A DNA stretch of 44,113 nucleotides from a virus (Duplodnaviria; Heunggongvirae; Uroviricota; Caudoviricetes), in IMG/VR virus record IMGVR_UViG_2630968800_000004; one strand, written 5' to 3'. A model generated the notes under the pieces. That model did not search any database. It was not told the origin of the DNA and saw nothing but the letters and a program-made list of their open reading frames with translations. Below are positions 8,632-31,652 of the stretch, piece after piece; position 1 is the first letter of the stretch, and every line of letters starts with the position of its first letter. The position numbers and the translations under genes are program-made.

Positions 8632-8648
8632 TAGGTAATGACTCCAAC

Positions 8649-10933: not shown

Positions 10934-10996
10934 CCTCACGCGCCAGCAAAATCTGGCGTCGGGATTGGCGTCCCGGATGTTTACGGAGCGATATGA

Positions 10997-11016
10997 GACG
11001 CGCCCGCGTCTTTTTT
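10997..11016 (+). terminator. Intrinsic terminator (tR'-like)
   Basis: GACGCG-ccc-GCGTC stem followed by TTTTTT. Confidence 0.4.
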
Positions 11017-11294: not shown

Positions 11295-11597
11295 ATGAGC
11301 AGAAAAACCCAACGTTACTCTAAAGAGTTCAAAGCCGAAGCTGTCAGAACGGTTCTTGAAAATCAACTTTCGATCAGTGAAGGCGCTTCCCGATTATCCC
11401 TTCCTGAAGGCACTTTAGGACAATGGGTTACCGCCGCCAGAAAAGGGCTCGGTACTCCTGGTTCCCGCACGGTGGCTGAACTGGAATCTGAAATTCTGCA
11501 ACTGCGTAAGGCGTTAAATGAAGCTCGCCTTGAGCGAGATATATTAAAAAAAGCAACAGCGTATTTTGCACAGGAGTCGCTGAAAAATACGCGTTAA
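11295..11597 (+). CDS. IS600 OrfA
   Basis: 100-aa ORF identical in family to other copies. Confidence 0.85.
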   Translation: MSRKTQRYSKEFKAEAVRTVLENQLSISEGASRLSLPEGTLGQWVTAARKGLGTPGSRTVAELESEILQLRKALNEARLERDILKKATAYFAQESLKNTR

Positions 11598-11632
11598 TCG
11601 AACAATGGCGACAACAATTTCCCATTGAAGCG

Positions 11633-12451
11633 ATGTGTCAGGTATTTGGTGTATCCAGGAGCGGTTATTACAACTGGGTACAGCATGAACCCTCAGACAG
11701 AAAACAAAGTGATGAGCGGCTAAAACTGGAGATTAAGGTGGCACATATCCGCACTCGCGAAACATATGGAACCCGGCGGCTCCAGACGGAGCTGGCAGAG
11801 AATGGCATCATCGTTGGTCGTGACCGACTGGCACGTCTTCGTAAGGAGCTGAGGCTACGCTGTAAGCAGAAACGCAAGTTCAGAGCGACTACGAACCCGA
11901 ACCACAATCTGCCAGTTGCGCCAAATCTGCTGAACCAGACGTTCGCTCCTACAGCACCAAATCAGGTCTGGGTGGCGGACCTGACGTATGTTGCCACACA
12001 GGAGGGATGGTTGTACCTCGCTGGCATCAAAGATGTTTATACGTGTGAAATTGTCGGCTACGCCATGGGAGAGCGCATGACAAAAGAGCTGACAGGTAAA
12101 GCCCTGTTTATGGCGCTCAGGAGCCAGCGCCCACCTGCCGGGCTAATCCACCACTCTGATCGAGGTTCACAGTACTGCGCATACGATTACCGGGTCATAC
12201 AGGAGCAGTCTGGTCTGAAAACATCAATGTCGCGTAAAGGTAACTGTTACGACAACGCTCCGATGGAAAGCTTCTGGGGAACGCTGAAAAATGAGAGCCT
12301 GAGCCACTATCGTTTTAATAACCGGGATGAAGCCATCTCAGTAATACGGGAATACATTGAGATTTTCTACAATCGTCAGCGTCGTCACTCTCGTCTGGGG
12401 AATATCTCCCCGGCAGCCTTCAGGGAAAAATATCATCAGATGGCTGCTTAA
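11633..12451 (+). CDS. IS600 OrfB
   Basis: 272-aa ORF. Confidence 0.85.
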   Translation: MCQVFGVSRSGYYNWVQHEPSDRKQSDERLKLEIKVAHIRTRETYGTRRLQTELAENGIIVGRDRLARLRKELRLRCKQKRKFRATTNPNHNLPVAPNLLNQTFAPTAPNQVWVADLTYVATQEGWLYLAGIKDVYTCEIVGYAMGERMTKELTGKALFMALRSQRPPAGLIHHSDRGSQYCAYDYRVIQEQSGLKTSMSRKGNCYDNAPMESFWGTLKNESLSHYRFNNRDEAISVIREYIEIFYNRQRRHSRLGNISPAAFREKYHQMAA

Positions 12452-13098
12452 AAAAAGAACAAATGGTAGTGTCCGCTATTGCCAGTACACCTCACAGATT
12501 CCTGTTATTACCACCGAACTTTTGGCGCAGCTTTACGGCACTGAGCCGGTGCGTATTCGCCAGAATCATCATGAGAACAAAGTACGCTTCGTTGAAGGGA
12601 AACACTTTTTCAAAGTTGTTGGTAATGACCTTAAAGAATTGCGGGTCGCTTTAAACTACTCACAAAATCCAGTTTCACCCAAAGCCCGCTCCCTCATCCT
12701 CTGGACAGAACGAGGCGCAGCACGCCACGGCAAAATGCTCGAAACCGATCAGGCGTGGGATGTGTTCGAAAAACTGGAAGACTGCTATTTCAGTCAAAGG
12801 GATCCGTCAACGCCAGTTTCATGCCAGAAAAGTTACGACACGCGAGTTCTCTGTTATCAGAGAGGCGGTGTCACTGTTTCCACAATTCAGTTACGGGATG
12901 ATGATATTGTTATTTCCCTTGAGTCATGGCTGGAACTGGCGAGAGCCAATGGTTGGTTTGTTGTTCGCAGAGATAAACTGGTGGAAAGGTTGATGCAGCT
13001 TTAAAAAAGTTCTTGCATTTTTGCACATAAACTGCTTCAATTACGGTAAGCTTCGCAAAGCTGTATCGCGAGGCGAATAGCAGACATGGACACTTGAA

Positions 13099-13124
13099 AG
13101 AACCCGCTTTATGCGGGTTTTTTT
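13099..13124 (+). terminator. Rho-independent terminator after the antirepressor-like gene
   Basis: AACCCGC-tttat-GCGGGTT followed by TTTTTTT. Confidence 0.5.
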
Positions 13125-13174
13125 GTGCCTGAAAAATGGCACAGGGCGTTAAACGCGCTGGTGGTCAGATGAGT

Positions 13175-13203
13175 TTGCAGATGTGATGACATATGGTTAT
13201 TAT
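13175..13203 (+). promoter_or_regulatory. Candidate sigma70 promoter for the tRNA array (TTGCAG-17-TATTAT)
   Basis: Hexamers located about 9 bp upstream of the first tRNA 5' end. Confidence 0.35.
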
Positions 13204-13212
13204 TCTGCCTCC

Positions 13213-13289
13213 GGCCCTTTAGCTCAGTTGGTCAGAGCGAGCGACTCATAATCGCCAGGTCGCTGGTTCAAGTCCAGCAAGGGCCACCA
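13213..13289 (+). tRNA. tRNA with CAU anticodon, Ile2 (lysidine-type, ileX/ileZ-like) or Met
   Basis: Manual cloverleaf: acceptor GGCCCTT/AAGGGCC, anticodon loop CTCATAA, T-loop GGTTCAAGTCC, 3' CCA. Confidence 0.7.
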
Positions 13290-13290
13290 A

Positions 13291-13367
13291 CCACCACTAG
13301 CTCATCCGGATAGAGCATCAACCTTCTAAGTTGACGGTGCGAGGTTCGAGTCCTCGGTGGTGGGCCA
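13291..13367 (+). tRNA. tRNA-Arg (UCU)
   Basis: Acceptor CCACCAC/GTGGTGG, anticodon loop CTTCTAA, T-loop GGTTCGAGTCC, 3' GCCA. Confidence 0.7.
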
Positions 13368-13369
13368 GC

Positions 13370-13445
<76 letters not shown>

Positions 13446-13448
13446 TAT

Positions 13449-13523
<75 letters not shown>

Positions 13524-13637
13524 TGACCTTTCTTAAAGTACTCCAACCTACTGAATCCTAAGGGATACGGCTTTAAGCCTCCTTGCAGAGTTACTTACTG
13601 TAACCCACTGTGTAACCCTCTCAGGGCATGCAGACAT

Positions 13638-15242
13638 ATGATTCAGCTATCCAGTAGTCACAAACTTCCAGCAGTCTACTATCTCTACCAGCGTAACGGC
13701 GTCTACTACTTCCGTCTTAGGGTCAGACAATCAAACAATGATAGAATGACCTCAATATCATTACGGACCAAGGATAGACGCACCGCTATGGCTTACTCAA
13801 GGCACATAAAGGCAGCACTCAAGGCAATACACGCAGACAGACCCAACGCTACCTATGAGGAAATGAGGGAACACCTTAAGGACATCGCTGAGTGTGAACT
13901 GTCTATGGGCCGTTCAGATCTCTTTGAGCCTGACATGAGGGATATCTACCGGGACCAATACGGAGAACTTGGTGAGAGCCTTACCGATGCTCTGGCTAGT
14001 GAGCCGCTAAGCATTGACCAGCATCGTTACATCAATGAGGCCCTGAAGGTGCTAAAAGCCTGTATGAGGCGTATCGAAGCGGGAGACAGTCAGCTTCTGA
14101 TAGATTACGTCGATCTTTTTAATGATATTGATAGGCAAGATAACCAAGCAGACTCTGTGTCCCTATCTGTTAATGCTCCAGAAGTAAAACCAGAAGTTAC
14201 GCCTAGCATTACCATAGCGAGCCTCTTTGAGCAATACGAAGCGGAGAACTATCAGAACTGGAAGCCTGCAACCTTAAGGGAAAACAAGGCGTCACACGCT
14301 GCGTTAATCGAAATATTCGACCATCTGGGTCTCAATGCAGACGCTAACAGGGCTGACATGCTTAGGGTCCGTGATGTGCTCCAGCAGTTACCTAGGAACC
14401 GTAAGCAGCGCTTCAAGGATGTCCCACTTGCTGACCTGTTGAGCCGTGAAGATAAGACAGATTGTCTGGATGTCGTTACCATCAACAACAAGTATCTTAT
14501 TAAGATGGCTGCTGTCTTTAGGTGGGCTGTGCGCAATGACTTGATTAAAAAGAACATGACTGAGGGTCTGGAGCTTAAAGTCCCTCAGCGTAAAGCCTCA
14601 GGGGCCCGTAACGCCTTCTCTACGGAGCAGGTGGGGCAACTACTGGTCGCAGCTAAGGCATACTCTCAGAAGACCTCTGGTAAGCCGTATCATTATTATG
14701 TTACCGCCTTGGCTGCTATCACTGGGGCGAGACTCAATGAAATAGCCCAACTACAGGTCAAAGACGTCAGGACCACTGAGGCGGGAACCGTTTATATTCA
14801 TATCAATGAAGACGATAGTAGTCTACCCGGTAAGAGCATCAAGAACGCTCATAGTGACCGCTGTGTGCCTCTGGTCGATGGGGCCTATGGTTTTATATTG
14901 GCTGACTTTATGGCGCTTGTAGAGACCCGTAGAGGCGCTGACGGTGATGACGCTATGGTGTTCGATGGTCTGCGTCTCATGAAGAACGGTTACGGTGAGC
15001 AGGTGAGTAAATGGTTTAATCGGACGTTGTTGCCTAAAGTCCTCGTAGACCGTAGCGGCTTAGCGTTTCACTCGTTTAGACATACAGTTGCGGCCCAGTT
15101 AAAACAACATGGGGTCGAGTTGGCGTATGCACAGGCGATCATGGGGCATAGTTCAGGGTCTATTACGTACGACCGTTATGCTAAAGAGGTCGAGGTTGAT
15201 AGGCTGGTCAATGTGATGGCTGATGTTTATAAGGAGACCTAG
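13638..15242 (+). CDS. Tyrosine site-specific integrase (534 aa) immediately downstream of tRNA-Gly
   Basis: C-terminal catalytic signature LAFHSFRHTVAAQL...IMGHSSGSITYDRY; N-terminal YYFR-type motif; same orientation as the tRNA array. Confidence 0.85.
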   Translation: MIQLSSSHKLPAVYYLYQRNGVYYFRLRVRQSNNDRMTSISLRTKDRRTAMAYSRHIKAALKAIHADRPNATYEEMREHLKDIAECELSMGRSDLFEPDMRDIYRDQYGELGESLTDALASEPLSIDQHRYINEALKVLKACMRRIEAGDSQLLIDYVDLFNDIDRQDNQADSVSLSVNAPEVKPEVTPSITIASLFEQYEAENYQNWKPATLRENKASHAALIEIFDHLGLNADANRADMLRVRDVLQQLPRNRKQRFKDVPLADLLSREDKTDCLDVVTINNKYLIKMAAVFRWAVRNDLIKKNMTEGLELKVPQRKASGARNAFSTEQVGQLLVAAKAYSQKTSGKPYHYYVTALAAITGARLNEIAQLQVKDVRTTEAGTVYIHINEDDSSLPGKSIKNAHSDRCVPLVDGAYGFILADFMALVETRRGADGDDAMVFDGLRLMKNGYGEQVSKWFNRTLLPKVLVDRSGLAFHSFRHTVAAQLKQHGVELAYAQAIMGHSSGSITYDRYAKEVEVDRLVNVMADVYKET

Positions 15243-15330
15243 AGGAGACCATAGTCTAGGATGACACTTACTACAGACCTGTGTGGTCATGTTTTTGACT
15301 CATAGTTTTCTCTACTTGTCAAGGGATAAT

Positions 15331-15353
15331 TAATACGACTCACTATAGGGAGA
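15331..15353 (+). promoter_or_regulatory. Exact phage T7 RNA polymerase promoter consensus (TAATACGACTCACTATAGGGAGA), copy 1
   Basis: 23/23 match to the T7 class III promoter -17 to +6; predicted +1 G at 15348. Confidence 0.85.
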
Positions 15354-15450
15354 AGGACACAAAAAGTTTTCTCTTCTAGGATGACACTTACTACAGACCT
15401 GTGCGGTCATGTTTTTGACTCATAGTTTTCTCTGCTTGTCAAGGGGTAAT

Positions 15451-15473
15451 TAATACGACTCACTATAGGGAGA
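15451..15473 (+). promoter_or_regulatory. Exact phage T7 RNA polymerase promoter consensus, copy 2
   Basis: 23/23 match; predicted +1 at 15468. Confidence 0.85.
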
Positions 15474-15570
15474 AGGGACACAAAAAGTTTTCTCTTCTAG
15501 GATGACACTTACTACAGACCTGTGTGGTCATGTTTTTGACTCATGGTTTTCTCTACTTGTCAAGGATAAT

Positions 15571-15593
15571 TAATACGACTCACTATAGGGAGA
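15571..15593 (+). promoter_or_regulatory. Exact phage T7 RNA polymerase promoter consensus, copy 3
   Basis: 23/23 match; predicted +1 at 15588. Confidence 0.85.
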
Positions 15594-15779
15594 AGGGACA
15601 CAAAAAGTTTTCTCTTCTAGGACAACTAACCGTAACTTATCGCATCCTTTCAGGGGCGGGATGACCAATTACAGACACCAAGCGTTCTACTTAAAGTGAA
15701 TGCTTCCTGTGTGCTCTGGGTCAGTCGATAAGTGAATAGCAATAAGACACAATCATCTTAATTATGGTCTCTAGTCCCT

Positions 15780-17320: not shown

Positions 17321-17375
17321 GGTAATGCTGCCAACTTACTGATTTAGTGTATGATGGTGATTTTAAGGTGCTTGC

Positions 17376-17651
17376 GTGGCTTCCATTTCCATCAGATGTC
17401 CTTCCTGCTCCGCTACTGAAGGCGTGGTGCGTAACGGCAAAAGCACTGCCGGACATCAGCGCTATCTCTGCTCTCATTGCCGTAAAACATGGCAACTACA
17501 GTTCACTTACACCGCCTCTCAGCCCGGTACGCACCAGAAAATCATTGATATGGCCATGAATGGCGTCGGATGTCGTGCCAGTGCACGCATTATGGGCGTT
17601 GGCCTCAACACGGTTTTACGTCACTTAAAAAACTCAGGCCGCAGTCGGTAA
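17376..17651 (+). CDS. insA: IS1 InsA
   Basis: 91-aa ORF. Confidence 0.85.
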
Positions 17652-18073
17652 CCTCGCGCATACAACCGGGCAGTGATGTGATTGTCTGCGCTGAAATGGA
17701 CGAACATTGGGGCTACGTCGGTGCTAAATCACGTCAGCGCTGGCTGTTTTACGCGTATGACAGGATACGGAGGACGGTTGTGGCGCACGTCTTCGGTGAA
17801 CGCACTCTGGCCACACTGGAGCGTCTTCTGAGCCTGCTGTCGGCCTTTGAGGTCGTGGTATGGATGACGGATGGCTGTCCGCTGTATGAATCACGCCTGA
17901 AGGGAAAGCTGCACGTTATCAGCAAGCGTTACACTCAGCGCATTGAGCGACATAATCTGAATCTGAGACAACATCTGGCAAGGCTGGTACGGAAGTCACT
18001 GTCGTTCTCAAAATCGGTGGAGCTGCATGACAAGGTCATCGGGCATTATCTGAACATAAAACACTATCAGTAA
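17570..18073 (+). CDS. insB: IS1 InsB frame
   Basis: 167-aa ORF. Confidence 0.8.
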
Positions 18074-18088
18074 GTTGGAGTCATTACC

Positions 18089-19981: not shown

Positions 19982-21271
19982 ATGTCTGTAGTGATATCAG
20001 GTGCGCTGACTGATGGCGCAGGTATCCCCATGTCCGGATACCATATTATTCTGAAATCCCGGGTAAACCCCCCGGAAGTGGTGATGAACACTGTTGCTGA
20101 TGTGATGACAGGAAACGATGGTGAATACTGTTTCCATGCGCGGACTGGAAAATATGGTGTGTATCTGAAACAGGACTGGCGCAACGAGTACAACGTTGGC
20201 GACATTGCTGTATATGAGGACTCAAAGCCCGGCACGCTGAATGACTTTCTGATTGCTCCTGATGAGGGCGACCTGAAACCGGATGTCGTCAAACGCTTTG
20301 AGGAAATGGTGGCGCAGGCGCAGCAGAGCGCCGGGGCCGCAGCCGGAAACGCACAGCAGACGGCGCAGGATGTGGCGGCAGCCGCAGGTTATGCCCGCGC
20401 AGCAGAGCAGGCCAAAAATGACATTGATGCTGCGCTGACCGGCACTCTGAAAACGGCTAACCATCTGTCTGAAATCGCAGCAGCAGGCGAAAAGGCACAA
20501 CAGAAGTCCCGGGATAATCTGGGGCTGAAAAGTGCGGCCACGATGGAAGCACAGAGCGACATTTACGACCGGACAAAAGGCCGTCTGGCGATACCCGGCG
20601 CATTCGGCTTTGGGTGTGCTTTTCTGCCTGAAGATGTTATCCGTTTTGACACTAAGAGTGATTTCCTGGCCTGGGTAAGGAATGCGCTGCCAGGTGAATA
20701 TTCCGTTGCTGGCCCCTACGGCATCATCATACCCGACACACGGTTTGAAGGGGTGCTCAGCATCCGGTGGACTGATGCACGCCCTGAGACAACAGAACCG
20801 CGGTACAGAGCCAAATCCCTTACTTTTTACGGCATTAACGGCCCCATTTATCACACCCGCTACTGCTACTGGCCCATATCCAGACTGACTGGCTGGGTGA
20901 AAATAAATATAACCACAGAAGATATTATTTACAGAATCGTGGCGAGCTCTGTCCGCAACAGATGGGGAGACCCTGACATTGGCGGGCTGATTATTGCTGC
21001 GTACCAGGGAGAAGCTGACGGTGATAAAGTCATCAGACTTGTCAGGGGGCAGTCATACAGAGGCTCACGACTGGGACCGGTGGGGATTTCAGTGCCCAGT
21101 ACTCCCACCGGAACGTATATAGTATCCCCACAATTTTTCATTACGGGATGTTCAGAGCATTCATTACCGGGGTCATATTGCGCCCTGTCCGGGGTGCCGG
21201 ATGCACATGTCTCTGGCGCAATGCCCGGGCTTTTTATTCGCACATCGAGAGGAATGCACCGTGGAAATTAA
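19982..21271 (+). CDS. Phage tail-fibre protein (429 aa)
   Basis: Ala/Gln-rich central segment, conserved C-terminal region duplicated at 37759-37947, followed by an assembly-like gene. Confidence 0.55.
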   Translation: MSVVISGALTDGAGIPMSGYHIILKSRVNPPEVVMNTVADVMTGNDGEYCFHARTGKYGVYLKQDWRNEYNVGDIAVYEDSKPGTLNDFLIAPDEGDLKPDVVKRFEEMVAQAQQSAGAAAGNAQQTAQDVAAAAGYARAAEQAKNDIDAALTGTLKTANHLSEIAAAGEKAQQKSRDNLGLKSAATMEAQSDIYDRTKGRLAIPGAFGFGCAFLPEDVIRFDTKSDFLAWVRNALPGEYSVAGPYGIIIPDTRFEGVLSIRWTDARPETTEPRYRAKSLTFYGINGPIYHTRYCYWPISRLTGWVKINITTEDIIYRIVASSVRNRWGDPDIGGLIIAAYQGEADGDKVIRLVRGQSYRGSRLGPVGISVPSTPTGTYIVSPQFFITGCSEHSLPGSYCALSGVPDAHVSGAMPGLFIRTSRGMHRGN

Positions 21272-21825
21272 AAAAATCATTAATCCCCGTTATACCGAAA
21301 GTGGCGCAGTAGACTGTGACGTTTTTTTTTGACGACAGGGACCAGGCAGTCCCCTACACAGCCACCGCTGATGATGTCGCACCGACGGGTCAGCAAATCT
21401 GGCAGGAACTGCAAAGTGGCAAATGGGGTGAGATAGCCCCATTCACTGTGACACCAGAAATGCTGGAAGCGGCCAGAGAGGCCAGACGTCAGGAAATTGA
21501 AGCATGGCGCGCAGAACAGGAGGCGAAGCTGTTCACGTTTGAATGGAACGGTCGTATCTGGAATGCTGGTCCCGACTCACTGGGCCGCCTGTCCCCGGTA
21601 GTCATGCTGGCAAAATCTGTCACAGCACAAACACATATGGCGTGGAGCGATGCCGATAATCAGCAGGTGAAACTGTCGATGCCGGAACTGGAAGAACTGG
21701 CGGCAGCAATGGTGCAGGCGCAGGTCGATCGCAACGATGAGATTTATCGCCGTCAGCGGGAGCTGAAGGAAGAGCTGAATAGTCTGAAGGATTTGAATTC
21801 GGTTAGGAATTTTATCGTGGAATAA
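21261..21825 (+). pseudogene. Tail-fibre assembly/chaperone-like gene, copy 1, frameshifted in a T9 homopolymer
   Basis: GTG 21261 frame hits TGA right after T9 (21322-21330); paralog at 37937-38500 has T8 and an uninterrupted frame. Confidence 0.45.
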
Positions 21826-21833
21826 CAGAAGCT

Positions 21834-21903
21834 GCGGCACGTCGTATGCAGGAACGTGCCGCGGTTGGCTGGTAAACTTTCGATAGTGCGAGTATTGAAT
21901 GAT
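21834..21903. repeat. ~70-bp conserved element with hairpin, copy 1 (second copy at 40677-40745)
   Basis: GCGGCACGTCGTATGCAGGAACGTGCCGC... shared between the two tail-fibre module ends. Confidence 0.4.
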
Positions 21904-22025
21904 TTCTAGGCGTTATCGATTTTACGTATTTTTTGCATGATAGAATTCGTACCTCCTCCCAACGACCTTCCATGGCTTTCCGGACTTCTGTAGGCTGGCG
22001 GACGATGCTGTCCTCGGATGTTGTG

Positions 22026-22883
22026 CTAATTGGGTGATAACAGATCCTGTGTATGGGCGTTTCCCTTTGTGCGTGCGTTGATGCTGGTAACGGTAAACGT
22101 CATGATGAACACGACCGCGAATAAGACGACAATCGTCGGAGCTGGTGCGCTGTCGATAAAAAAGGACAGCCAGACACCAGTCATTGACACTATTACCGAT
22201 ATGCCAGTCGCCAGTAGGAGCGCAATATGAAAGCGTTGTGTCAGGAGTACTGCAATGGCGCCAGGCGCAATGAGCAGAGAAATAGAGAGAATGATACCTA
22301 CTGCTTTCAGCGTCGCCACAATGGTCAGGGAAACCATGCACAGCAGCCCATAATGCAGCCATCTCGTATGCAAACCGCTTACCTGCGCCTGTTGATAATC
22401 AAAGCTGAACAGCAAAAAATCCCGCCATTTTACGCTAATAACAAGTGTAACCAGCCCGGCAATAATCACCGTCTGGATTATGTCGCCGATGGTTATCCCG
22501 AGCATGTCGCCGAAAAGAATATGGTCAAGATGTACGTCTGGTTTAATTGCAATATACAAGATCAGACCTGCGGCAAACATGCCAGAAAAAACAATCCCCA
22601 TAACTGTATCTTGCTTGATTCGGCTGTTGTCTTTCAGGTATCCCGTCGCCACCGCGCAGAATACTCCGGCGACGAATGCCCCTGTAGCCAGAGGTAACCC
22701 CAGAATCCAGGTAAGCACGATGCCAGGAAAAACCGCATGACTCATCGCGTCACCCATCAGTGCCCAACCTTTCAGGACCAGAAAGACCGACAGCAGCGCA
22801 CAGGGTATGGAAACTACCAGTGAAATCAGCAGTGCGTGACTCATAAAGGTGAACTGCAGTGGCTCCAGTAATAATGCCATCAT
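22026..22883 (-). CDS. sitD: SitD, iron/manganese ABC transporter permease
   Basis: 285-aa polytopic membrane ORF, last gene of a four-gene ABC operon. Confidence 0.8.
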   Translation of the reverse strand: MMALLLEPLQFTFMSHALLISLVVSIPCALLSVFLVLKGWALMGDAMSHAVFPGIVLTWILGLPLATGAFVAGVFCAVATGYLKDNSRIKQDTVMGIVFSGMFAAGLILYIAIKPDVHLDHILFGDMLGITIGDIIQTVIIAGLVTLVISVKWRDFLLFSFDYQQAQVSGLHTRWLHYGLLCMVSLTIVATLKAVGIILSISLLIAPGAIAVLLTQRFHIALLLATGISVIVSMTGVWLSFFIDSAPAPTIVVLFAVVFIMTFTVTSINARTKGNAHTQDLLSPN

Positions 22884-23737
22884 GAGCGATCCTCCAGCGC
22901 TTTATGCGCACGCCGACGATTTGCCAAAAGTCCATGGGTGGGCGCAAATACAAATGCTAAAAGAAACAGCAGTGTCTGCGCCACCACGATGATTCCACCT
23001 GTCGCGCCGTCCAGAAAGTAACTGACCCACGCGCCGAGGAAACTGGTTACACTGCCAATAGTTACAGCAATTATGAGCAGGCGGGGAAAACGATCGGTTA
23101 ACAACCATGCTGTTGCACCGGGAGTCACCACCAGACAGATCACCAGAAAGGCACCAACCGTTTGCAGCGCCGCAACGGTCGAAACCGACAGCAGGGTGAA
23201 GAAGAGGATTTTTAATCTGCCCGGATGTAATCCAATAGCACGGGCGTGATTCTCGTCGAAAAAGGTCACCATAAGATCTTTCCATTTGAAAAAAAGCACG
23301 ATGATCGAGAGAATGCCAATGATAGTGAGTTGCAGGATATCCGCCGGATCGATTGCCAGAATATTGCCCAGGACGATGGTCTGAATGTTCACGGATGTCG
23401 GGTTCAATGACACCATAAACAGCCCCAGGCCAAAAAAGGACGAGAAGATCAGGCCGATGATGGCATCTTCTTTTAAGCGGGTGCGTTGGTTAAGAAACAG
23501 CATGCTGCCCGCTGCCAGTCCGCCGGAAAAGAAGGCTCCCAGAGAAAACGGAAGCCCCAGCATATATGCCCCCGCAACACCCGGGACAATAGAGTGCGAC
23601 AGCGCATCGCCAATCAGCGACCAGCCTTTTAGCATCAGATAGCATGACAGGAAAGCGCAGAGACCGCCGACCATTGCCGAGACCCACATCGCATTGAGCA
23701 TATATTCATAGCTGAAGGGTTCCAGTAGCACGTTCAT
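22880..23737 (-). CDS. sitC: SitC, iron/manganese ABC transporter permease
   Basis: 285-aa membrane ORF with overlapping start/stop. Confidence 0.8.
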
Positions 23738-24561
23738 CTTGCTTCCCTCTGCACCGCTGACGGTCGATGTGCCACAAAAGGGCGTTCATCGTCAGTAATA
23801 ATGCTTTCTTCCGAGCCGTTAAGTGTGACATGGCGCAGTACGCCGCTAAAAGCCAGCTCCAGGTTCTCGGCTGTAAAAGTGGTGTCTGTCGGCCCGCTTG
23901 CCAGGACGGTGCCTTTGACCATGACCGTATAATCGCAAAATGTCGTGACTGAGCCGAGATTGTGCGTTGAGACAAGCATCGTTTTGCCTTCCGCGCGTAA
24001 CTCCCTCAACAGGCTGATGATTTTCGCTTCGGTTTTCACATCAACGCCGGTAAAAGGTTCATCCAGCAGGATCACATCACCCTGCTGTGCAATTGCTCTC
24101 GCCAGAAAGACGCGTTTCTTTTGTCCACCGGAAAGCTCGCCGATTTGACGATGGCGAAAATCCACCATATCGACACGTTCCAGCGCATCGGTGACAATCT
24201 GACGATCCCTCTTTTTGGCTATACGCAACATACCCATATGCCCATAGCGGCCCATCATCACCACATCTTCCACCAGTACAGGAAATGACCAGTCAACCTC
24301 TTCTGACTGAGGGACGTAGGCAACCAGGTTTTTCTGTAGCGCCTGTCGCGTGGGAATACCCAGAACAGATATCTTTCCGCTGGTCAGACGCACAAATCCC
24401 ATAATCGCTTTAAACAACGTCGATTTTCCGGAACCGTTTACCCCAACCAGAGCGGCAATAGATCCACTTGGTACTGTGAAGGATGCATCGCGCAGTGCTG
24501 TGTGCCCGTTACGCCAGGTGACAGTAACATCATTAACGACAATGCCTGCAGATTGCATCAT
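23734..24561 (-). CDS. sitB: SitB, ABC transporter ATP-binding protein
   Basis: Walker [13 protein letters not shown] signature LSGGQKKR, Walker B ILLDEP. Confidence 0.85.
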
Positions 24562-25475
24562 TATTTCTCCCTTTTCCCGGCTTTAATTCCCTGTACCAGC
24601 GTACTGGTAGTAACCTTAAGAAGGTCGATATACGTAGGTACCGGGCCGTTTTCTGTGCTCAGGGAATCGACATAGAGCACACCGCCGTAGTGTGCGCCGG
24701 TTTCACGCGCAACCTGACGCGCTGGTTTATCGGAAATCGTACTCTCGCTAAAGACTGCCGGGATATGATTTTTCTTAACTATATCAACAACCTTACGTAC
24801 CTGCTGCGGTGTTCCTTGTTGATCGGCATTAATCGGCCACAGATAAAGCTCTTTTAGCCCCAAATCGCGTGCGAGATAAGAAAAAGCCCCTTCACTGGTG
24901 ACCATCCATCGCTGATTCTCAGGGAGTTCCGTAATCTGCTTACGCAGGGGGGCAAGGGTTTGGGTAATCTTGGCTTTATAAGTATCGGCATTACGTTGGT
25001 AGGTTTGTGCATTTGCCGGATCGTATTTTATCAACGCATCACGAATATTATCGACGTAAATCAGAGCATTATCTGGCGACATCCATGCATGGGGATTAGG
25101 TTTGCCCTCATAGGGTCCTTCGGTGATCCCTACTGGCGTCACACCCGAAGAGACAATTACTTCTGGAACCCCATTGAGATGCTGGTAAAAGCGTTGGAAC
25201 CACAATTCCAGATTCATACCATTGGCGAGAATCAGTTGTGCCCCCTGCGCACGTTTAATATCGCCAGGGGTAGGCTGATACTCATGAATTTCTGCACCAG
25301 GCTTGGTTATGGATGAGACTTCTGCAGCATCTCCAGCCACGTTTTTGGCCATATCCGCGATGATGGTAAATGTTGTAATGACCTTGAATTTTTCAGTTGC
25401 ACTTGCCTGAAATGCGATCGAGCAGGTGAGGGCGAGGCACCCCAAGAGCATGGTTACTTTTTTTATTGAGTGCAT
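24561..25475 (-). CDS. sitA: SitA, periplasmic metal-binding protein
   Basis: Signal peptide plus TroA/ZnuA-like solute-binding ORF (304 aa). Confidence 0.8.
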
Positions 25476-25507
25476 AATTTAGTACCTATAGTGAGCAAAA
25501 TTAGAAC

Positions 25508-25529
25508 AAACATAGCAACGGCTATGTTT
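25508..25529 (-). promoter_or_regulatory. MntR operator-like palindrome (AAACATAGCaacgGCTATGTTT) in the sitA promoter region
   Basis: Perfect inverted repeat 33-54 bp upstream of the sitA start. Confidence 0.55.
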
Positions 25530-25542
25530 TATAGCATAACCT

Positions 25543-25560
25543 ATACAAAATGAAAATAAT
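25543..25560 (-). promoter_or_regulatory. Fur-box-like sequence (AAAATAATTATCATTAAC)
   Basis: Matches the GATAATGATAATCATTATC-type consensus at most positions. Confidence 0.5.
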
Positions 25561-25906
25561 TATCATTAACAGCTTTGAGGCCTAAAACAGGGATTAGGTT
25601 GTTTCCTGCTGGCGACATGATATTGAGGAAAAAAGTAGAGCAGCTATTAGGCTTTGAAATGACTTTATGAGGAAAATTGTTGATGGCAAAAATGGGGCAA
25701 AAAAGAGTGGGTTATCGTAGCTTATTGTTGTCGCTGATAATGTTTAACATATTGAAAAATAAATAAAATACTTATGAGTCAGATAGTTGTGATTTTTGCC
25801 CTTACTTGTTCAGGTTGTATTGTTCTTTCTTTGTAATTTGTTGATTTTCTTGCATTATTTCAGTTCTCTGGTACTAAATGGGGCAAATTGGGGGCAAACT
25901 TTGCAA

Positions 25907-26546
25907 CTACGATAACCGCGCATTCAACATGGCTATCTGTTCGTCGTTCATGTCATCAATCCACATACCGTAAATTTCATACACCATTTGCGCAGTTTCA
26001 TGCCCCATCTGGCTGGCTATAAATGCCGGGTTCGCTCCTGCCGTCAACAGCCAGCAGGCAAAAGTATGTCGCGTATGGTACGGATTACGGCGGCGAATAC
26101 CAGCACGTTTTACTGCTGCATTCCATCTTGTACCCAAACTGCTTACCGAGTAATAAGGTTTCTGTTTTTCGTTACACACCCTGGGCATGAAAACAAAATG
26201 CAGTTTTTGTTTTTCAGTTCTGCCGTACTCCCGATGATAAAAAGTGATTTCGCTTTTGCGATGATGCCCGGTCAGTTTGTATTGCTCCTTCAGTGCTTCA
26301 AGAGCCGGCTGCAGTAATGTTACCGTCCGGATCCCGGCATTTGTTTTTGGGGGACCGAACATATCAAGTATCGTCAGGTTTCTTCTGACATTCACAATTC
26401 CCTTCTCGAAATCCACATCCTCCCACGCCAGAGCTGCCAGTTCCCCGTGACGAAGCCCGGAGTAAACGGCAAATTTCCACAAGTTTTGGCTCTGTCCTTT
26501 TTCACTTTCCATTAATGCATTGAATTCTGTTTTAGATAACGGGTCA
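25907..26546 (-). pseudogene. Tyrosine integrase, C-terminal catalytic portion (N-terminal part removed at IS1)
   Basis: ...NPYHTRHTFACWLLTAGANPAFIASQMGHETAQMVYEIY catalytic motifs. Confidence 0.7.
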
Positions 26547-26601
26547 GGTAATGCTGCCAACTTACTGATTTAGTGTATGATGGTGATTTTAAGGTGCTTG
26601 C

Positions 26602-26877
26602 GTGGCTTCCATTTCCATCAGATGTCCTTCCTGCTCCGCTACTGAAGGCGTGGTGCGTAACGGCAAAAGCACTGCCGGACATCAGCGCTATCTCTGCTCT
26701 CATTGCCGTAAAACATGGCAACTACAGTTCACTTACACCGCCTCTCAGCCCGGTACGCACCAGAAAATCATTGATATGGCCATGAATGGCGTCGGATGTC
26801 GCGCCAGTGCACGCATTATGGGCGTTGGCCTCAACACGGTTTTACGTCACTTAAAAAACTCAGGCCGCAGTCGGTAA
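26602..26877 (+). CDS. insA: IS1 InsA
   Basis: 91-aa ORF. Confidence 0.85.
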
Positions 26878-27299
26878 CCTCGCGCATACAACCGGGCAGT
26901 GATGTGATTGTCTGCGCTGAAATGGACGAACATTGGGGCTACGTCGGTGCTAAATCACGTCAGCGCTGGCTGTTTTACGCGTATGACAGGATACGGAGGA
27001 CGGTTGTGGCGCACGTCTTCGGTGAACGCACTCTGGCCACACTGGAGCGTCTTCTGAGCCTGCTGTCGGCCTTTGAGGTCGTGGTATGGATGACGGATGG
27101 CTGTCCGCTGTATGAATCACGCCTGAAGGGAAAGCTGCACGTTATCAGCAAGCGTTACACTCAGCGCATTGAGCGACATAATCTGAATCTGAGACAACAT
27201 CTGGCAAGGCTGGTACGGAAGTCACTGTCGTTCTCAAAATCGGTGGAGCTGCATGACAAGGTCATCGGGCATTATCTGAACATAAAACACTATCAGTAA
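26796..27299 (+). CDS. insB: IS1 InsB frame
   Basis: 167-aa ORF. Confidence 0.8.
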
Positions 27300-27314
27300 G
27301 TTGGAGTCATTACC

Positions 27315-27486
27315 CACCGGAACTGATTTGATGAACTATCAACGCTCTTAAATTCCCGGCCTTTTTAATGTTACTGTTAGTAATCTCCCAGCCTTTCAAT
27401 GTTTCCCGACATCGTTTTCCTCGAAACATGAACCAGATGCGAATGTATTTACCTCGAATCTCGACACCTGTTGGTAATTTAGACAT
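27315..27486 (-). pseudogene. Integrase N-terminal fragment (arm-binding region)
   Basis: Minus-strand translation MSKLPTGVEIRGKYIRIWFMFRGKRCRETLKGW... ends at the IS1 boundary. Confidence 0.5.
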
Positions 27487-27702
27487 ATCATGAGTCTTTG
27501 ATAAACTGATTTATCTTCGGATAGTTGTACCAGATAATCCCTCGCTTACTGTCTGGCTTCCCTAAAGGAGATACTCGTTTGAAGTGGAAGCCTTCCACCC
27601 AACAGTTCTGGCGGTATGCTTCAATTTGTCTGGCACCCAGACCAGTGCGAAGCATCAGGCTGAACCGCCCCGGGTTTCCTGGAGAGTGTTTTATCTGTGA
27701 AC

Positions 27703-28585
<883 letters not shown>

Positions 28586-28589
<4 letters not shown>

Positions 28590-28912
28590 TTTTTCCAGAG
28601 GCGGTCGAACTCCGCCTTCGCAAAATAAGCGGAAGCCTGGCGAAGGATATCGTTACTGCGGCGCAGTTCACGATTTTCACGCTCCAGCTCTTTCAGACGC
28701 TGACGTTCAGCGGTGGTGAGCCCTCCATCACCGCCCCCGGTATCCCGCTCATGCTGGCGAACCCAGACACGCAGAGTCTCCGGCGTACAGCCAATCTTTG
28801 GGGCAATGGAACAAATTGTCGCCCATTGTGAGTCATATTCGCCCTGACTTTCCAGAACCATACGGACTGCCCGTTGACGGACTTCGGGGGAAAAACGAGT
28901 ATTTTTAGTCAT
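28586..28912 (-). CDS. IS629 OrfA
   Basis: [41 protein letters not shown]... Confidence 0.85.
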
Positions 28913-28986
28913 CCTGTTTACCTCTTTCTCAGGAAGTTTAGTCTCCAGGATTCCCGGGGCGGTTCATTCCCAAAATGCACTTGGTT

Positions 28987-30084
28987 TTACACCGGAATAT
29001 TCTCATCGTATCCTGCTTGTTGCGTTTCGTTTTGTGTTTGTGGATCCGGGAATGCATATTCAACGCCTTCCAGTTCAATCCATAGTGCATTACGACCAGC
29101 TTTGATTGTCGGCCAGTCCATACCTTTGATTCTTTCCCATGAGCGGGAGGTGAATGTTTTTTCCAGCAAATCAGCTTTTGCGCGTTTGGCGTCGTTACTG
29201 GTGCCCCCATGGTGCTTGTTGAGCAACTCGATAATTTCATCAAGTGCGATTTCTTTTGCACGCTTTTCTTTTAGCCATGTCGGTGTACCGTCGTTGGCAA
29301 ATAATTCACTGTTATCCCGTGAGGTATCGATGCCGGGGTGTTCACCTCCCAGGTTAAGAGACTCGATATGAGGAAGAAAGTTTTTAAATGTTGGGTTTGA
29401 AAATACCTGTCCATCAATACGGGTGGAGCGATCTTTTAGTATTCTGGCGGTGCGCCACACCTGACCGGTTTCTATGTTCATTTGCTTCTCCATCTGGATC
29501 CGGATGGAGGGTTCATAACCGGTTTCTGTTTCTGCTTTCATTTTTATACCGGTTTTTGCCAACTGGCGTTTGCCATCATCACCTTCGAAAAAGTCATACT
29601 CATATCCTGCACGCCCGCACATAATAATGTGCGCCTGACTGTTAACAAATCGATCGGTAAAGCGTCGCCACTCCTGTTTGAGCCACGCCCAGTCTGAAAA
29701 TTCCAGTCCTCGTTTACGGTTTCGGCGTCTGGCATACTCGTCGCATAATCCGGTCCAGAAGTGACTGATGGAGTCGATGATCATTACGGAACCGCTGCTT
29801 TCCGCTTCATTAATGGCTTCAAGCAGATCAACAAACGAGCGGGTTTTTGCCGTAAATAATTCGATATTTTCCGCATCAAAGCGGGGTTTAACCCAGTCAG
29901 AGCCTGTTTCTGTGTCCAGAAACATTACCGGGCGGTTACCAGCTTCAATTCCCCGTTGCCGCATAAGCATTACCAGACCAATAGCCAGTTCGCTTGCTGT
30001 GTAGGTTTTGCCGTCGCCAGCAAACCCCATAATTCCTGCTTTTAGATAGGCCTGTGTGTTTATTGCTCGTTGAAAAAGCGCCAT
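28987..30084 (-). CDS. P-loop NTPase (RecA-fold/AAA-like), phage-associated, function unknown
   Basis: Walker A GFAGDGKTYTA, Walker-B-like VMIIDSISHFW; 365 aa. Confidence 0.55.
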   Translation of the reverse strand: MALFQRAINTQAYLKAGIMGFAGDGKTYTASELAIGLVMLMRQRGIEAGNRPVMFLDTETGSDWVKPRFDAENIELFTAKTRSFVDLLEAINEAESSGSVMIIDSISHFWTGLCDEYARRRNRKRGLEFSDWAWLKQEWRRFTDRFVNSQAHIIMCGRAGYEYDFFEGDDGKRQLAKTGIKMKAETETGYEPSIRIQMEKQMNIETGQVWRTARILKDRSTRIDGQVFSNPTFKNFLPHIESLNLGGEHPGIDTSRDNSELFANDGTPTWLKEKRAKEIALDEIIELLNKHHGGTSNDAKRAKADLLEKTFTSRSWERIKGMDWPTIKAGRNALWIELEGVEYAFPDPQTQNETQQAGYDENIPV

Positions 30085-30089
30085 AGATT

Positions 30090-30384
30090 TTAGTCCTCCA
30101 AATCAATATCAACCTGGTGGTGGGCAATGGTTTCAGCCATGTACCGGATGTGTTCTGCCATGCGCTCCTGAAACTCAACATCATCATCAAATGCGTGGCT
30201 GATTGCCTGTTTATTGGCACCGTGGCGTTGCAAATGGTCGATGCAGAGCGATTCAAACAGGTGCTGAGGCAGACCTTTTTCCAGGTCGTCCGCCAGTTCC
30301 GTTTCTTTTTCTTCACGAACGATCTGCTGGTAGTGACGAGCCCATGCCATTTCTTCAATACGATCAAAAATCGGATAAGCGCTC
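30090..30384 (-). pseudogene. Hypothetical gene, 5' end removed at IS600 junction
   Basis: ORF reads through into the IS600 terminus (first residues encoded by IS sequence). Confidence 0.4.
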
Positions 30385-30448
30385 TGAGGTAGCCTGAGTT
30401 TAACGGACACTCCTTCCTGAAATAGAATGGCATCAGAAGGAGCTAATA

Positions 30449-30751
30449 ATGAGCAGAAAAACCCAACGTTACTCTAAATAGTTCAAAGCCGAAGCTGTCA
30501 GAACGGTTCTTGAAAATCAACTTTCGATCAGTGAAGGCGCTTCCCGATTATCTCTTCCTGAAGGCACTTTAGGACAATGGGTTACCGCCGCCAGAAAAGG
30601 GCTCGGTACTCCTGGTTCCCGCACGGTGGCTGAACTGGAATCTGAAATTCTGCAACTGCGTAAGGCGTTAAATGAAGCTCGCCTTGAGCGCGATATATTA
30701 AAAAAAGCAACAGCGTATTTTGCACAGGAGTCGCTGAAAAATACGCGTTAA
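30449..30751 (+). pseudogene. IS600 orfA with nonsense mutation (codon 10 GAG to TAG)
   Basis: ACTCTAAATAGTTC versus ACTCTAAAGAGTTC in the other copies. Confidence 0.8.
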
Positions 30752-30786
30752 TCGAACAATGGCGACAACAATTTCCCATTGAAGCG

Positions 30787-31605
30787 ATGTGTCAGGTATT
30801 TGGTGTATCCAGGAGCGGTTATTACAACTGGGTACAGCATGAACCCTCAGACAGAAAACAAAGTGATGAGCGGCTAAAACTGGAGATTAAGGTGGCACAT
30901 ATCCGCACTCGCGAAACATATGGAACCCGGCGGCTCCAGACGGAGCTGGCAGAGAATGGCATCATCGTTGGTCGTGACCGACTGGCACGTCTTCGTAAGG
31001 AGCTGAGGCTACGCTGTAAGCAGAAACGCAAGTTCAGAGCGACTACGAACCCGAACCACAATCTGCCAGTTGCGCCAAATCTGCTGAACCAGACGTTCGC
31101 TCCTACAGCACCAAATCAGGTCTGGGTGGCGGACCTGACGTATGTTGCCACACAGGAGGGATGGTTGTACCTCGCTGGCATCAAAGATGTTTATACGTGC
31201 GAAATTGTCGGCTACGCCATGGGAGAGCGCATGACAAAAGAGCTGACAGGTAAAGCCCTGTTTATGGCGCTCAGGAGCCAGCGCCCACCTGCCGGGCTAA
31301 TCCACTACTCTGATCGAGGTTCACAGTACTGCGCATACGATTACCGGGTCATACAGGAGCAGTCTGGTCTGAAAACATCAATGTCGCGTAAAGGTAACTG
31401 TTACGACAACGCTCCGATGGAAAGCTTCTGGGGAACGCTGAAAAATGAGAGCCTGAGCCACTATCGTTTTAATAACCGGGATGAAGCCATCTCAGTAATA
31501 CGGGAATACATTGAGATTTTCTACAATCGTCAGCGTCGTCACTCTCGTCTGGGGAATATCTCCCCGGCAGCCTTCAGGGAAAAATATCATCAGATGGCTG
31601 CTTAA
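30787..31605 (+). CDS. IS600 OrfB
   Basis: 272-aa ORF. Confidence 0.8.
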   Translation: MCQVFGVSRSGYYNWVQHEPSDRKQSDERLKLEIKVAHIRTRETYGTRRLQTELAENGIIVGRDRLARLRKELRLRCKQKRKFRATTNPNHNLPVAPNLLNQTFAPTAPNQVWVADLTYVATQEGWLYLAGIKDVYTCEIVGYAMGERMTKELTGKALFMALRSQRPPAGLIHYSDRGSQYCAYDYRVIQEQSGLKTSMSRKGNCYDNAPMESFWGTLKNESLSHYRFNNRDEAISVIREYIEIFYNRQRRHSRLGNISPAAFREKYHQMAA

Positions 31606-31652
31606 AAAAAGAACAAATGGTAGTGTCCGCTATTGCCAGTACACCTCACAGG

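Follow-up and report, generated by a model that had tools for sequence, protein, structure and literature searches.

The sitABCD Operon

The stretch of DNA analyzed here (the window; 44,113 nucleotides) contains four intact minus-strand open reading frames at 22026–25475 with ZnuA, ABC_tran, and two ABC-3 domains, in agreement with the original prediction of a four-gene ABC importer:

24561–25475, minus strand: sitA, 304 aa, periplasmic metal-binding protein (Pfam ZnuA, 8.9e-86)
23734–24561, minus strand: sitB, 275 aa, ATPase (Pfam ABC_tran; NCBIfam PRK15056)
22880–23737, minus strand: sitC, 285 aa, permease (Pfam ABC-3, 3.8e-83)
22026–22883, minus strand: sitD, 285 aa, permease (Pfam ABC-3, 9.7e-76; RefSeq name SitD)

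The gene order (binding protein, ATPase, two ABC-3 permeases), in reading frames that overlap or abut, is that of the SitABCD/YfeABCD systems of cluster A-I, and RefSeq-annotated sitABCD genes have equal lengths and 96–99.6% DNA identity. SitA was aligned with Y. pestis YfeA (5uxs) over 274 residues (3.7e-125). SitB scored 593.7 bits against NCBIfam PRK15056 (manganese/iron ABC transporter ATP-binding protein), for which the equivalog cutoff is 393. The alignment placed H64, H129, E195, and D270 of SitA opposite YfeA residues 76, 141, 207, and 282, which we take to be the metal ligands in the YfeA structures, giving a His-His-Glu-Asp site. Yersinia pestis YfeABCD and Salmonella SPI-1 SitABCD share this four-gene architecture, and the metal-ligand positions of YfeA are kept in SitA; those systems occupy chromosomal or SPI-1 loci, whereas sit in the window is phage-borne. 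These features mark sitABCD as a cluster A-I (YfeABCD-type) Mn2+/Fe2+ ABC importer, with SitA as the binding protein, SitB as the ATPase, and SitC and SitD as the permeases. The Mn2+/Fe2+ transport function itself is taken from the literature.

The nearest SitA homologs outside E. coli are from Phytobacter (86%) and Izhakiella (84%). Because SitA of Salmonella arizonae is less similar (76%), the phage-borne cassette does not appear to be a recent Salmonella derivative. The signal peptide of S. flexneri SitA is not MntS-like (MntS/SitA signal-peptide preprint), which has no bearing on the locus analyzed here. No terminator was detected 3′ of sitD, and a scan of the interval between sitD and the tail-fiber assembly gene (tfa) for terminators and promoters returned nothing.

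Predicted MntR and Fur Operators Upstream of sitA

The perfect palindrome claimed upstream of sitA, AAACATAGC-AACG-GCTATGTTT (9-4-9), is present exactly at 25508–25529. The accompanying Fur-box-like sequence, AAAATAATTATCATTAAC, is the complement of GTTAATGATAATTATTTTC and could likewise be placed, with 16 of 19 positions agreeing with the 19-bp consensus used for scoring (GATAATGATAATCATTATC). The promoter region can be described as follows:

25508–25529: predicted MntR operator, −54 to −33 from the sitA ATG
25552–25570, minus strand: predicted Fur box (16/19), −95 to −77 from the sitA ATG
25528–25556, minus strand: putative sigma-70 promoter, −35 TTTTCA (25556–25551), 17-nt spacer, −10 TATAAA (25533–25528)

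The MntR-type palindrome was the single match in the window with up to three mismatches permitted (0.01 expected), and one Fur-type site in the window fell within three mismatches (0.02 expected). The half-sites AAACATAGC-N4-GCTATGTTT recur unchanged in front of E. coli K-12 mntH, where a Fur-type box also lies just upstream, although the K-12 promoter has another 4-nt spacer, another distance to the start codon, and an NRAMP transporter downstream. Both boxes are found at constant positions (−54 and −95) in the Rac-type, lambda-type, plasmid, and S. boydii sit copies examined; the Fur box in other sit copies scores 17/19. Among 20 promoters of Enterobacterales sitA homologs, 11 contain ATAGC-N4-GCTAT with at most three mismatches (chance expectation ~2e-4 per promoter by our own estimate), often with a Fur-like box 20–25 bp further upstream. 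The uniqueness of the sites, the identity with mntH, and the conservation across sit contexts thus support the proposed reading of the two boxes as probable MntR and Fur operators.

The promoter was missed by a consensus scanner because its −10 hexamer lacks the final T, and the hexamers listed above are a tentative assignment read by eye. As placed, the Fur box would overlap the −35 hexamer and the MntR palindrome the −10 hexamer and start site. With this overlap, Fe2+-Fur and Mn2+-MntR would each occlude the promoter and shut the operon off, and expression of sit would be expected once both metals are scarce.

The palindrome at 25508–25529 has features of an RNA hairpin, which could act as an intrinsic terminator or a sib-like retroregulator on transcripts reading from int across attP. 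On the minus strand, it was picked up in a terminator scan as a 9-bp stem with a T-rich tail behind it, the 56-nt region folds with −12.7 kcal/mol (z = −2.4), and its location ~280 bp past the att core is about the place that sib occupies in lambda. However, the stem has only three G-C pairs, and the palindrome is located inside the sit cassette rather than in the phage arm. It accompanies sit on plasmids, in phages with a lambda-type integrase, and at non-phage chromosomal loci of other genera, and mntH, with the same half-sites, is a non-phage gene. The hairpin was rejected as very unlikely since the site is part of the sit cassette and the same as the mntH palindrome, and the palindrome is treated below as a predicted MntR operator.

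Published work is in line with this assignment. In the review PMC3852070, K-12 mntH is under dual repression by MntR and Fur (citing Patzer and Hantke 2001), and sit of S. flexneri and Salmonella is likewise described as repressed by both regulators; for Mn-dependent binding and repression by MntR, the review cites Runyen-Janecky 2006 and Ikeda 2005. The work summarized there contradicts a sitA promoter free of metal regulation. Phage-borne sit with an upstream Fur box has also been described (PMC6969025).

A Complete attP Between sitA and the Integrase

The operon had been described as cargo of a prophage remnant, located between the tail-fiber module and an integrase. This holds for what is a decayed prophage, and the 430-bp interval separating sitA from the integrase remnant (intR′) proved to be a complete Rac attP, with contiguous P arm, 26-bp core, and P′ arm:

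25685–25805: attP P arm; its single GGGGCAAA repeat (25694) is a putative arm-type Int site
25806–25831: Rac att core, 26 bp, TTGTTCAGGTTGTATTGTTCTTTCTT
25832–25906: attP P′ arm; a pair of GGGGCAAA repeats, at 25880 and 25891, lies 11 bp apart

The core has the same sequence as the att feature that the Rac-SA53 record (KU052037.1) carries at its uspF end, and it is invariant across attL, attR, and the tandem junction. The P arm corresponds to the sequence on the attR side in Rac-SA53 and in E. coli sit prophages, and the P′ arm shares 99.7% identity with the ttcA-intR attL in E. coli CFSAN029787; agreement with attR-type sequence extends to 25848, and agreement with attL-type sequence starts at 25806. 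The GGGGCAAA repeats, of which the P arm of the window has one and not three, are candidate arm-type sites, judging from the sequence.

Because a complete attP lies between sitA and the integrase, the layout (tail fiber, sit, attP, int, xis) is that of the vegetative (excised) phage map and not the prophage order; the counterparts in E. coli and S. boydii read sitA-attR-uspF. The integrase is therefore not at a prophage end, and it may belong to a second, tandem prophage and not to the one carrying sit. The sitA-attP-intR arrangement was absent among 5,426 complete E. coli genomes. A whole-window scan assigned no Rfam families to the sit/att region.

Disruption of intR by IS1

The integrase remnant consists of two fragments, found exactly at the coordinates originally predicted, on either side of an IS1 copy:

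25907–26546, minus strand: intR′ C-terminal fragment, residues ~199/200–411, Phage_integrase catalytic domain
26547–27314, plus strand: IS1, 768 bp, no target-site duplication, at a 424-bp intR deletion
27315–27486, minus strand: intR′ N-terminal fragment, residues 1–57 (Pfam Arm-DNA-bind_2, 3.9e-20)

The alignment to an intact integrase that had been proposed as a check was performed, and both pieces are collinear with and 99.7% identical to intR of E. coli CFSAN029787 (positions 5001–5743 and 6166–6511 of that locus, L005). The C-terminal fragment differs from E. coli IntR by a single residue change, A338T. The suspected loss of an internal portion was confirmed: L005 5742–6165 is absent, a deletion of 424 bp (or 422 bp, when intR is taken to include 2 ambiguous bp at the joint) that corresponds to residues ~58–198 of the 411-aa IntR. 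The set of arm-binding, core-binding, and catalytic domains found in the intact protein is incomplete, and intR′ is a pseudogene, a nonfunctional member of its family, because only residues 1–57 and ~200–411 are left with IS1 between them.

The IS1 element is 99.9% identical to another copy in the window, at 17321–18088. Simple insertion of IS1 generates an 8–9-bp target-site duplication. Here, the inverted repeats are present, but the 9-bp flanks differ (AACGGGTCA vs CACCGGAAC), as anticipated, and 424 bp of the target are missing. The joint fits an adjacent deletion or recombination between two IS1 copies. IS1 and the adjacent 424-bp deletion together took out the linker and core-binding part of IntR. 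Both IS1 junctions together occurred in no complete E. coli genome, and the IS1 junction was found in at least 20 draft assemblies.

The missing duplication, and the many rearrangement joints close by, might also be expected if IS1-mediated rearrangement had brought together pieces of two different integrases. This is extremely improbable given that the fragments lie on the same strand in the correct order, that each is 99.7% identical to one intR, and that the neighboring xisR and P′ arm are collinear with the same CFSAN029787 locus. The alignment led to rejection of this reading, and both fragments are assigned to one Rac-type intR.

Flanking Phage Genes and Insertion Sequences

Remnants of phage genes lie on both sides of the sit-attP-intR′ segment:

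19982–21271, plus strand: tail-fiber gene (N-terminal domain type; Pfam phage_tail_N, 1.1e-70), in the late-operon direction
21202–21825, plus strand: tail-fiber assembly gene (tfa; DUF4376; 207 aa in public genome annotations), converging on sitD
27488–27660, minus strand: xisR′ without its first 14 codons (Pfam DUF1233, profile positions 18–67 of 70)
27658–28966, minus strand: IS3-family element (IS629/IS1203-like), at a 364-bp deletion
28970–30384, minus strand: early-left genes (AAA_24 ATPase and gam) from the same Rac-type phage, cut by IS600

From 20377 on, the tail-fiber gene is collinear with stf of the Rac-site prophage of E. coli FDAARGOS_944, and a second copy of tfa, 97% identical, is located at 37759–38470. 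On the integrase side, homology of xisR′ stops at L005 6511, within a full xisR coding sequence at L005 6339–6554, and the 5′ end of the gene was removed by the IS3-family element. That element also contains an Rfam ALIL frameshift pseudoknot (28515–28631). The early-left block is 99.6% identical to L005 6876–8290. Three IS-linked deletions are present in this arm: IS1 in intR, one in xisR, and one in the gam/recE region. The chromosomal flanks are ycjZ′ and pphA′, not the Rac attachment site, and neither ttcA nor uspF is nearby. The element is now fixed in place, having lost its lysis, head, and tail genes.

Boundaries and Distribution of the sit Cassette

Comparison of sit copies delimits a block common to Rac-int prophages, lambda-int phages, and ColV-type plasmids:

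22005–25680, minus strand: sit cassette, 3.7 kb, boundaries approximate to ~20 bp

The left boundary was set by alignment. On the right, lambda-type phages match to 25666 and the plasmid to 25690, and in E. coli Jnd12, with a related prophage that lacks sit, the match to the P arm begins at 25685. The cassette has a GC content of 49%, equal to that of the window, so base composition gives no sign of foreign origin; the att/promoter stretch is AT-rich (33–35% GC). Like a lambdoid b-region moron, the cassette lies between the tail-fiber genes and attP, has its own predicted Fur/MntR promoter, and is dispensable, as the Jnd12 prophage illustrates. It is a b-region moron of a lambdoid phage of the Rac family, placed after the tail-fiber assembly gene in the opposite orientation and abutting the P arm.

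Inducible lambda-like coliphages (e.g., Lambda_2E9, LR595860.1) carry the same 3.7-kb cassette at 98% identity, with the same Fur and MntR boxes; its position, with the tail-fiber genes on one side and attP/int on the other, and its orientation agree as well. They differ in being functional phages with a lambda-type integrase and ~2 kb of extra b-region genes between sitA and int. In infant-gut samples, sitABCD with its Fur box was found on 70% of lambda-like phages (Mathieu et al. 2020, PMC6969025). “Salmonella phage SPF_0923” (ON032529.1), considered as a sit phage with a Rac P arm, was rejected; the record is a prophage prediction that includes host uspF/ompN.

Identity of the Locus

Over 20.5 kb, the window shows 100% identity with CP007037.1, the record of a complete chromosome that we take to be that of S. 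flexneri. This match and the ipaH gene of the window point to Shigella flexneri. The region is very probably the S. flexneri “sit island,” with sitABCD and its Fur/MntR sites as cargo of a decayed Rac-type prophage; the regulatory part of this account is based on reviews and sequence comparison.

The biology is already published: earlier work covers Sit of S. flexneri and how Fur and MntR repress it, “PAI sit,” and the common occurrence of sitABCD as a moron in inducible lambda-like coliphages. Mn2+/Fe2+ uptake by S. flexneri Sit is covered in the reviews PMC3852070 and PMC4746246, and PAI sit is described in PMC7545054; the primary literature cited in these three sources includes Runyen-Janecky 2003 and 2006 and Fisher 2009. 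The locus described there is the same one, with the operon, the surrounding phage genes and IS, and the Fur/MntR regulation, and there is no substantive difference from the window. In published work, Sit contributes to S. flexneri intracellular growth and virulence, and the biological weight of the locus is thus already established. The locus is ordinary except that the operon is joined to an integrase via an intact phage attP site; the literature on S. flexneri Sit, taken here as the works other than Fisher 2009, makes no mention of the sitA-intR junction as an attP. Added here are the exact operator coordinates, the extent and location of the integrase deletion, tight boundaries for the 3.7-kb sit cassette, which moves between Rac-type phages, lambda-type phages, and ColV plasmids, and the complete attP to which the operon is still attached.

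Origin of the attP Junction

Rac-site (ttcA-uspF) sit prophages, such as those of E. coli FDAARGOS_944 (NZ_CP065613.1) and S. boydii Sb227 (CP000036.1), belong to the same phage family and have the intR type found here, an identical SitA protein, and a tail-fiber/tfa-sitDCBA-P arm segment that is 99–99.7% identical. In those prophages, sit ends at attR beside uspF and intR is ~48 kb away, with attL beside ttcA. In the window, by contrast, attP connects sit with intR, the late genes have been lost, and ycjZ′ and pphA′ border the block. Relative to the complete ttcA-uspF prophage in FDAARGOS_944, the window is circularly permuted.

We infer two candidate routes to this junction, one starting from two Rac-site prophages in tandem and the other from an excised phage captured as a circle. 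We tentatively suggest that the junction records noncanonical fixation of a virulence-associated phage, by way of a polylysogen or a captured circle and subsequent stripping by IS, while regarding this as rather uncertain; no description of the sitA-attP-intR arrangement was found in the literature. If true, the metal importer (and perhaps the neighboring ipaH) would be locked permanently in the chromosome, away from the phage attachment site. The operon still attached to a complete attP is a small, clean example of IS-driven decay immobilizing phage cargo and could be used as a marker for the history of sit and ipaH islands.

In the first route, two Rac-family phages would have integrated head to tail at ttcA, leaving attP between them. 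The right end of the left prophage would include sit, and intR′-xisR′-gam-recE′-kilR would belong to the right prophage, with the second tfa copy and ipaH as its own right end; IS-mediated deletions and inversions would then have stripped away the outer portions and brought the block to its present place, with ycjZ′ and pphA′ on either side. We place this route slightly short of an even prospect. The same junction without sit (tail fiber ... P arm-core-P′-intR) is also found in E. coli Jnd12 and in four further genomes, and the window has two related right arms, evident from the two tfa copies (21083–21795 vs 37759–38470, 97%) and a 66-bp segment (21837–21902) repeated at 40680–40744, one arm continuing into sit and the other into ipaH. 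However, the left and right phage segments form an almost whole permutation of a single phage, with only ~8.1/9.4–11.8 kb of the reference phage (L112) missing between them, so a tandem origin requires a coincidence; the absence of ttcA and uspF nearby also argues against it.

In the second route, a single sit-carrying Rac-type phage would have excised, regenerating attP, and the circle would have been fixed in the chromosome, either through cointegration mediated by IS or through homologous recombination in its immunity region. The result would be a circularly permuted prophage, and intR would be the integrase of the sit phage itself. This is possible but somewhat doubtful. The second tfa-ipaH arm would still need a separate prophage, the Rha segment past IS2 is just 83% identical to the reference, and the bordering IS600 and IS2 belong to different families, so the structure is not a simple cointegrate. 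The permutation breakpoints are nevertheless only ~2.3–3.6 kb apart on the reference phage map, at IS600 (437–1700, beside ydaU) and at IS2 (33982–35315) or the Rha region, and a single prophage of E. coli FDAARGOS_944 carries both this intR type (98.8%) and this sit (99%).

Gene content and boundaries of the sit cassette

The original prediction of a four-gene ABC importer was borne out by four intact, close-packed ORFs on the minus strand (22026–25475), encoding proteins of 285, 285, 275, and 304 aa with, in the same order, ABC-3, ABC-3, ABC_tran, and ZnuA domains (Pfam). SitB scores above the NCBIfam equivalog cut-off for a manganese/iron ABC ATPase. Against Yersinia pestis YfeA (5uxs), SitA scores 3.7e-125, and its His64, His129, Glu195, and Asp270 align to the metal-ligand positions of YfeA. 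The DNA is 96–99.6% identical to RefSeq-annotated sitABCD loci. Homology common to Rac-type, lambda-type, and plasmid copies begins ~20 bp past the sitD stop codon (~22005), and the right edge (25666–25690) coincides exactly with the start of the P arm in E. coli Jnd12, at a prophage junction that lacks sit; the cassette is a tight unit. Outside E. coli and Shigella, the closest SitA homologues (loci L032–L051) are from Phytobacter (86%) and Izhakiella (84%), followed by Buttiauxella, Citrobacter, Shimwellia, and Pantoea/Erwinia. As identity drops to only 76% for Salmonella arizonae, descent of the phage-borne cassette from the Salmonella SPI-1 sit locus seems unlikely.

Operators upstream of sitA

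Both the perfect palindrome and the Fur-box-like string predicted upstream of sitA are present, each unique in the window. The palindrome, AAACATAGC-AACG-GCTATGTTT (25508–25529), is the sole match in 44 kb with three mismatches tolerated (0.01 expected). The Fur box, GTTAATGATAATTATTTTC (25552–25570; the complement of the string first noted), agrees with the Fur consensus at 16/19 positions (0.02 expected in the window). Upstream of E. coli K-12 mntH, a Fur-type box precedes AAACATAGC-AAAG-GCTATGTTT, so the half-sites are the same and only the spacer differs. The MntR and Fur boxes lie at −54 and −95 from the ATG, with sequence and position kept in all sit copies examined, which came from Rac-type prophages of E. 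coli, a lambda-type phage, S. boydii Sb227, other Shigella-type genomes, and a plasmid of ColV type whose palindrome has one mismatch. Among sitA promoters from 20 Enterobacterales species (SitA 74–86% identical), 11 contain a palindrome match 40–80 bp before the start codon (≤3 mismatches over 18 specified bases), where by our calculation ~2e-4 of 300-bp promoters would have one by chance. In these promoters the core ATAGC-N4-GCTAT is almost always kept, and a Fur-like box commonly lies 20–25 bp upstream. A plausible sigma-70 promoter on the minus strand would comprise TTTTCA (25556–25551), a 17-nt spacer, and TATAAA (25533–25528), placing the −35 over the Fur box and the −10 and start site over the MntR box; a simple promoter scanner did not call it. 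Reviews describe sit as repressed by Mn-MntR and by Fe-Fur in both S. flexneri and Salmonella (PMC3852070).

An IS1-associated deletion in intR

The neighbouring integrase gene is arranged as follows:

25907–26546, intR C-terminal fragment, Phage_integrase catalytic domain (Pfam)
26547–27314, IS1, 768 bp
27315–27486, intR N-terminal fragment, Arm-DNA-bind_2 domain (Pfam)

The ttcA-intR-xisR locus of E. coli CFSAN029787 (L005) aligns collinearly, at 99.7% identity, with both fragments, the adjacent xisR remnant, and the sequence beyond the 3′ end of int; window 25806–26548 aligns with L005 5001–5743 and 27315–27660 with 6166–6511. The alignment to an intact homologue thus established a single integrase and ruled out an origin of the fragments in different, unrelated ones. 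It also confirmed the predicted loss of an internal portion, as ~424 bp of intR are absent precisely at IS1. Residues 1–57 (two substitutions) and ~200–411 (one substitution) of 411 remain; the linker and core-binding region are lost, and intR is therefore dead. As first noted, IS1 lacks a target-site duplication, its flanks being AACGGGTCA and CACCGGAAC, for which the standard explanations are an IS1-promoted adjacent deletion or recombination between two IS1 copies. The IS1-intR junctions were absent from all complete E. coli genomes searched, and the IS1-flanked 58-aa intR fragment was found again in at least 20 draft assemblies.

Two further IS elements mark deletions in the early-left arm relative to the same reference. 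At an IS629/IS1203-like element (27658–28966), whose own orfB is broken into two ORFs, 364 bp are missing, and with them a DUF1187 gene and the first 14 codons of xisR. At IS600 (30385–31648), 503 bp are missing from the gam/recE region; gam has lost its start codon.

A complete attP between sitA and intR

Lambdoid prophages of E. coli and S. boydii Sb227 encode an identical SitA protein at their right ends, where uspF-ompN-nifJ follows directly. The nearly complete 48-kb sit prophage of E. coli FDAARGOS_944 has the order ttcA, attL, intR, xisR, early genes, Q, lysis, head, tail, J, lom, stf, tfa, sitDCBA, attR, uspF. The window is collinear with it yet circularly permuted, and has none of its lysis, head, or tail genes. 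The matching segments are:

1701–13523, ydaU through Q to the phage tRNA cluster
20228–25848, stf, tfa, sit, P arm
25806–36386, core, P′ arm, intR, xisR, AAA ATPase, gam, recE, ydaE, Rha

Sequence of attR type extends to 25848 and that of attL type begins at 25806. The 26 bp that they share (25806–25831) are the same as the annotated att core of Rac-SA53, and this overlap makes the sitA-intR spacer a complete attP. On the plus strand of the window, GGGGCAAA occurs three times, always in the att arms (25694; 25880 and 25891, 11 bp apart), and these copies are candidate arm-type Int sites. The P arm has one copy (25694–25705) versus three in E. coli sit prophages (~13430–13470 in locus L001) and Rac-SA53; a 31-bp indel flanked by the repeats accounts for the difference, and S. 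boydii Sb227 apparently has the short P arm too. The order tail fibre, sit, attP, int, xis is that of the excised phage, and sequenced inducible lambda-like phages carry the same cassette in the same order. A search of 5,426 complete E. coli genomes found no contiguous sitA-attP-intR; the best query coverage was 80%, in matches without the sit side.

The original prediction had set the operon, as prophage cargo, between the integrase and the tail-fibre module. Cargo placement stands; the geometry is corrected, with an intact attP separating sit from an integrase that may belong to a neighbouring prophage. Otherwise, both observation and interpretation were correct. The operon, its function, dual Fur/MntR control, island residence, and moron status are all published: sit resides in a phage- and IS-rich Shigella island, “PAI sit” (PMC7545054), and sitABCD is a common phage moron, found with a Fur box on 70% of the lambda isolates of Mathieu et al. 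(PMC6969025). Our additions are the corrected geometry and quantitative details of the locus, and only the fixation of phage cargo in attP order in S. flexneri is mildly new.

Origin of the junction

Creation of P-O-P′ requires site-specific recombination. We tentatively favor tandem lysogeny at the Rac site followed by loss of the outer parts through IS activity, given that five E. coli genomes contain an identical tandem junction, there lacking sit. A second tail-fibre-assembly (tfa) copy from 37759 onward (97% identical to 21083–21795) is followed by ipaH (38680–40395, minus strand), and a 66-bp stretch (40680–40744) resembles 21837–21902, between tfa and sitD. These likenesses place ipaH and sit at the same moron position in two right arms and suggest two related prophage remnants, as the tandem route would predict. 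Capture of an excised circle via the immunity region is the slightly less likely possibility; in its favor, the left and right phage segments complement each other almost exactly on the phage map. The Shigella sRNA CssrB (151 bits) maps to 40524–40706.

Chromosomal setting and accessory features

The window is identical to CP007037.1, presumably Shigella flexneri, over 20,476 bp and carries ipaH (NCBIfam IpaH_Shig), which together indicate a Shigella flexneri-type chromosome. The left flank (1–483) is the LysR-family gene ycjZ, cut by IS600; on the right (41911–42363), a truncated pphA (Metallophos) adjoins IS1/IS600, with yebW and yebV beyond it. Since ycjZ and pphA are ~0.5 Mb apart in K-12, the island borders are IS-mediated rearrangement joints, and the sit/ipaH block lies away from the Rac attachment site.

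Homology to the E. coli sit prophage extends as far as the 3′ end of a four-tRNA phage cluster (13213–13523; anticodons CAT, TCT, TGT, TCC) and no further. Immediately after it are a 534-aa tyrosine recombinase (13638–15242; DUF6538 and Phage_integrase) and tandem repeats of ~120 bp (15255–15622). The arrangement (13213–15622) is suggestive of an integrative element whose target was the tRNA-Gly gene of the phage itself. A hok/sok (CssrC) module lies at 7819–8143. The C4-antisense/isrK pair occurs twice, downstream of the Q-like gene (10927–11128, plus strand) and overlapping the 5′ part of an opposite-strand Rha/antirepressor-family ORF (35914–36102, minus strand).
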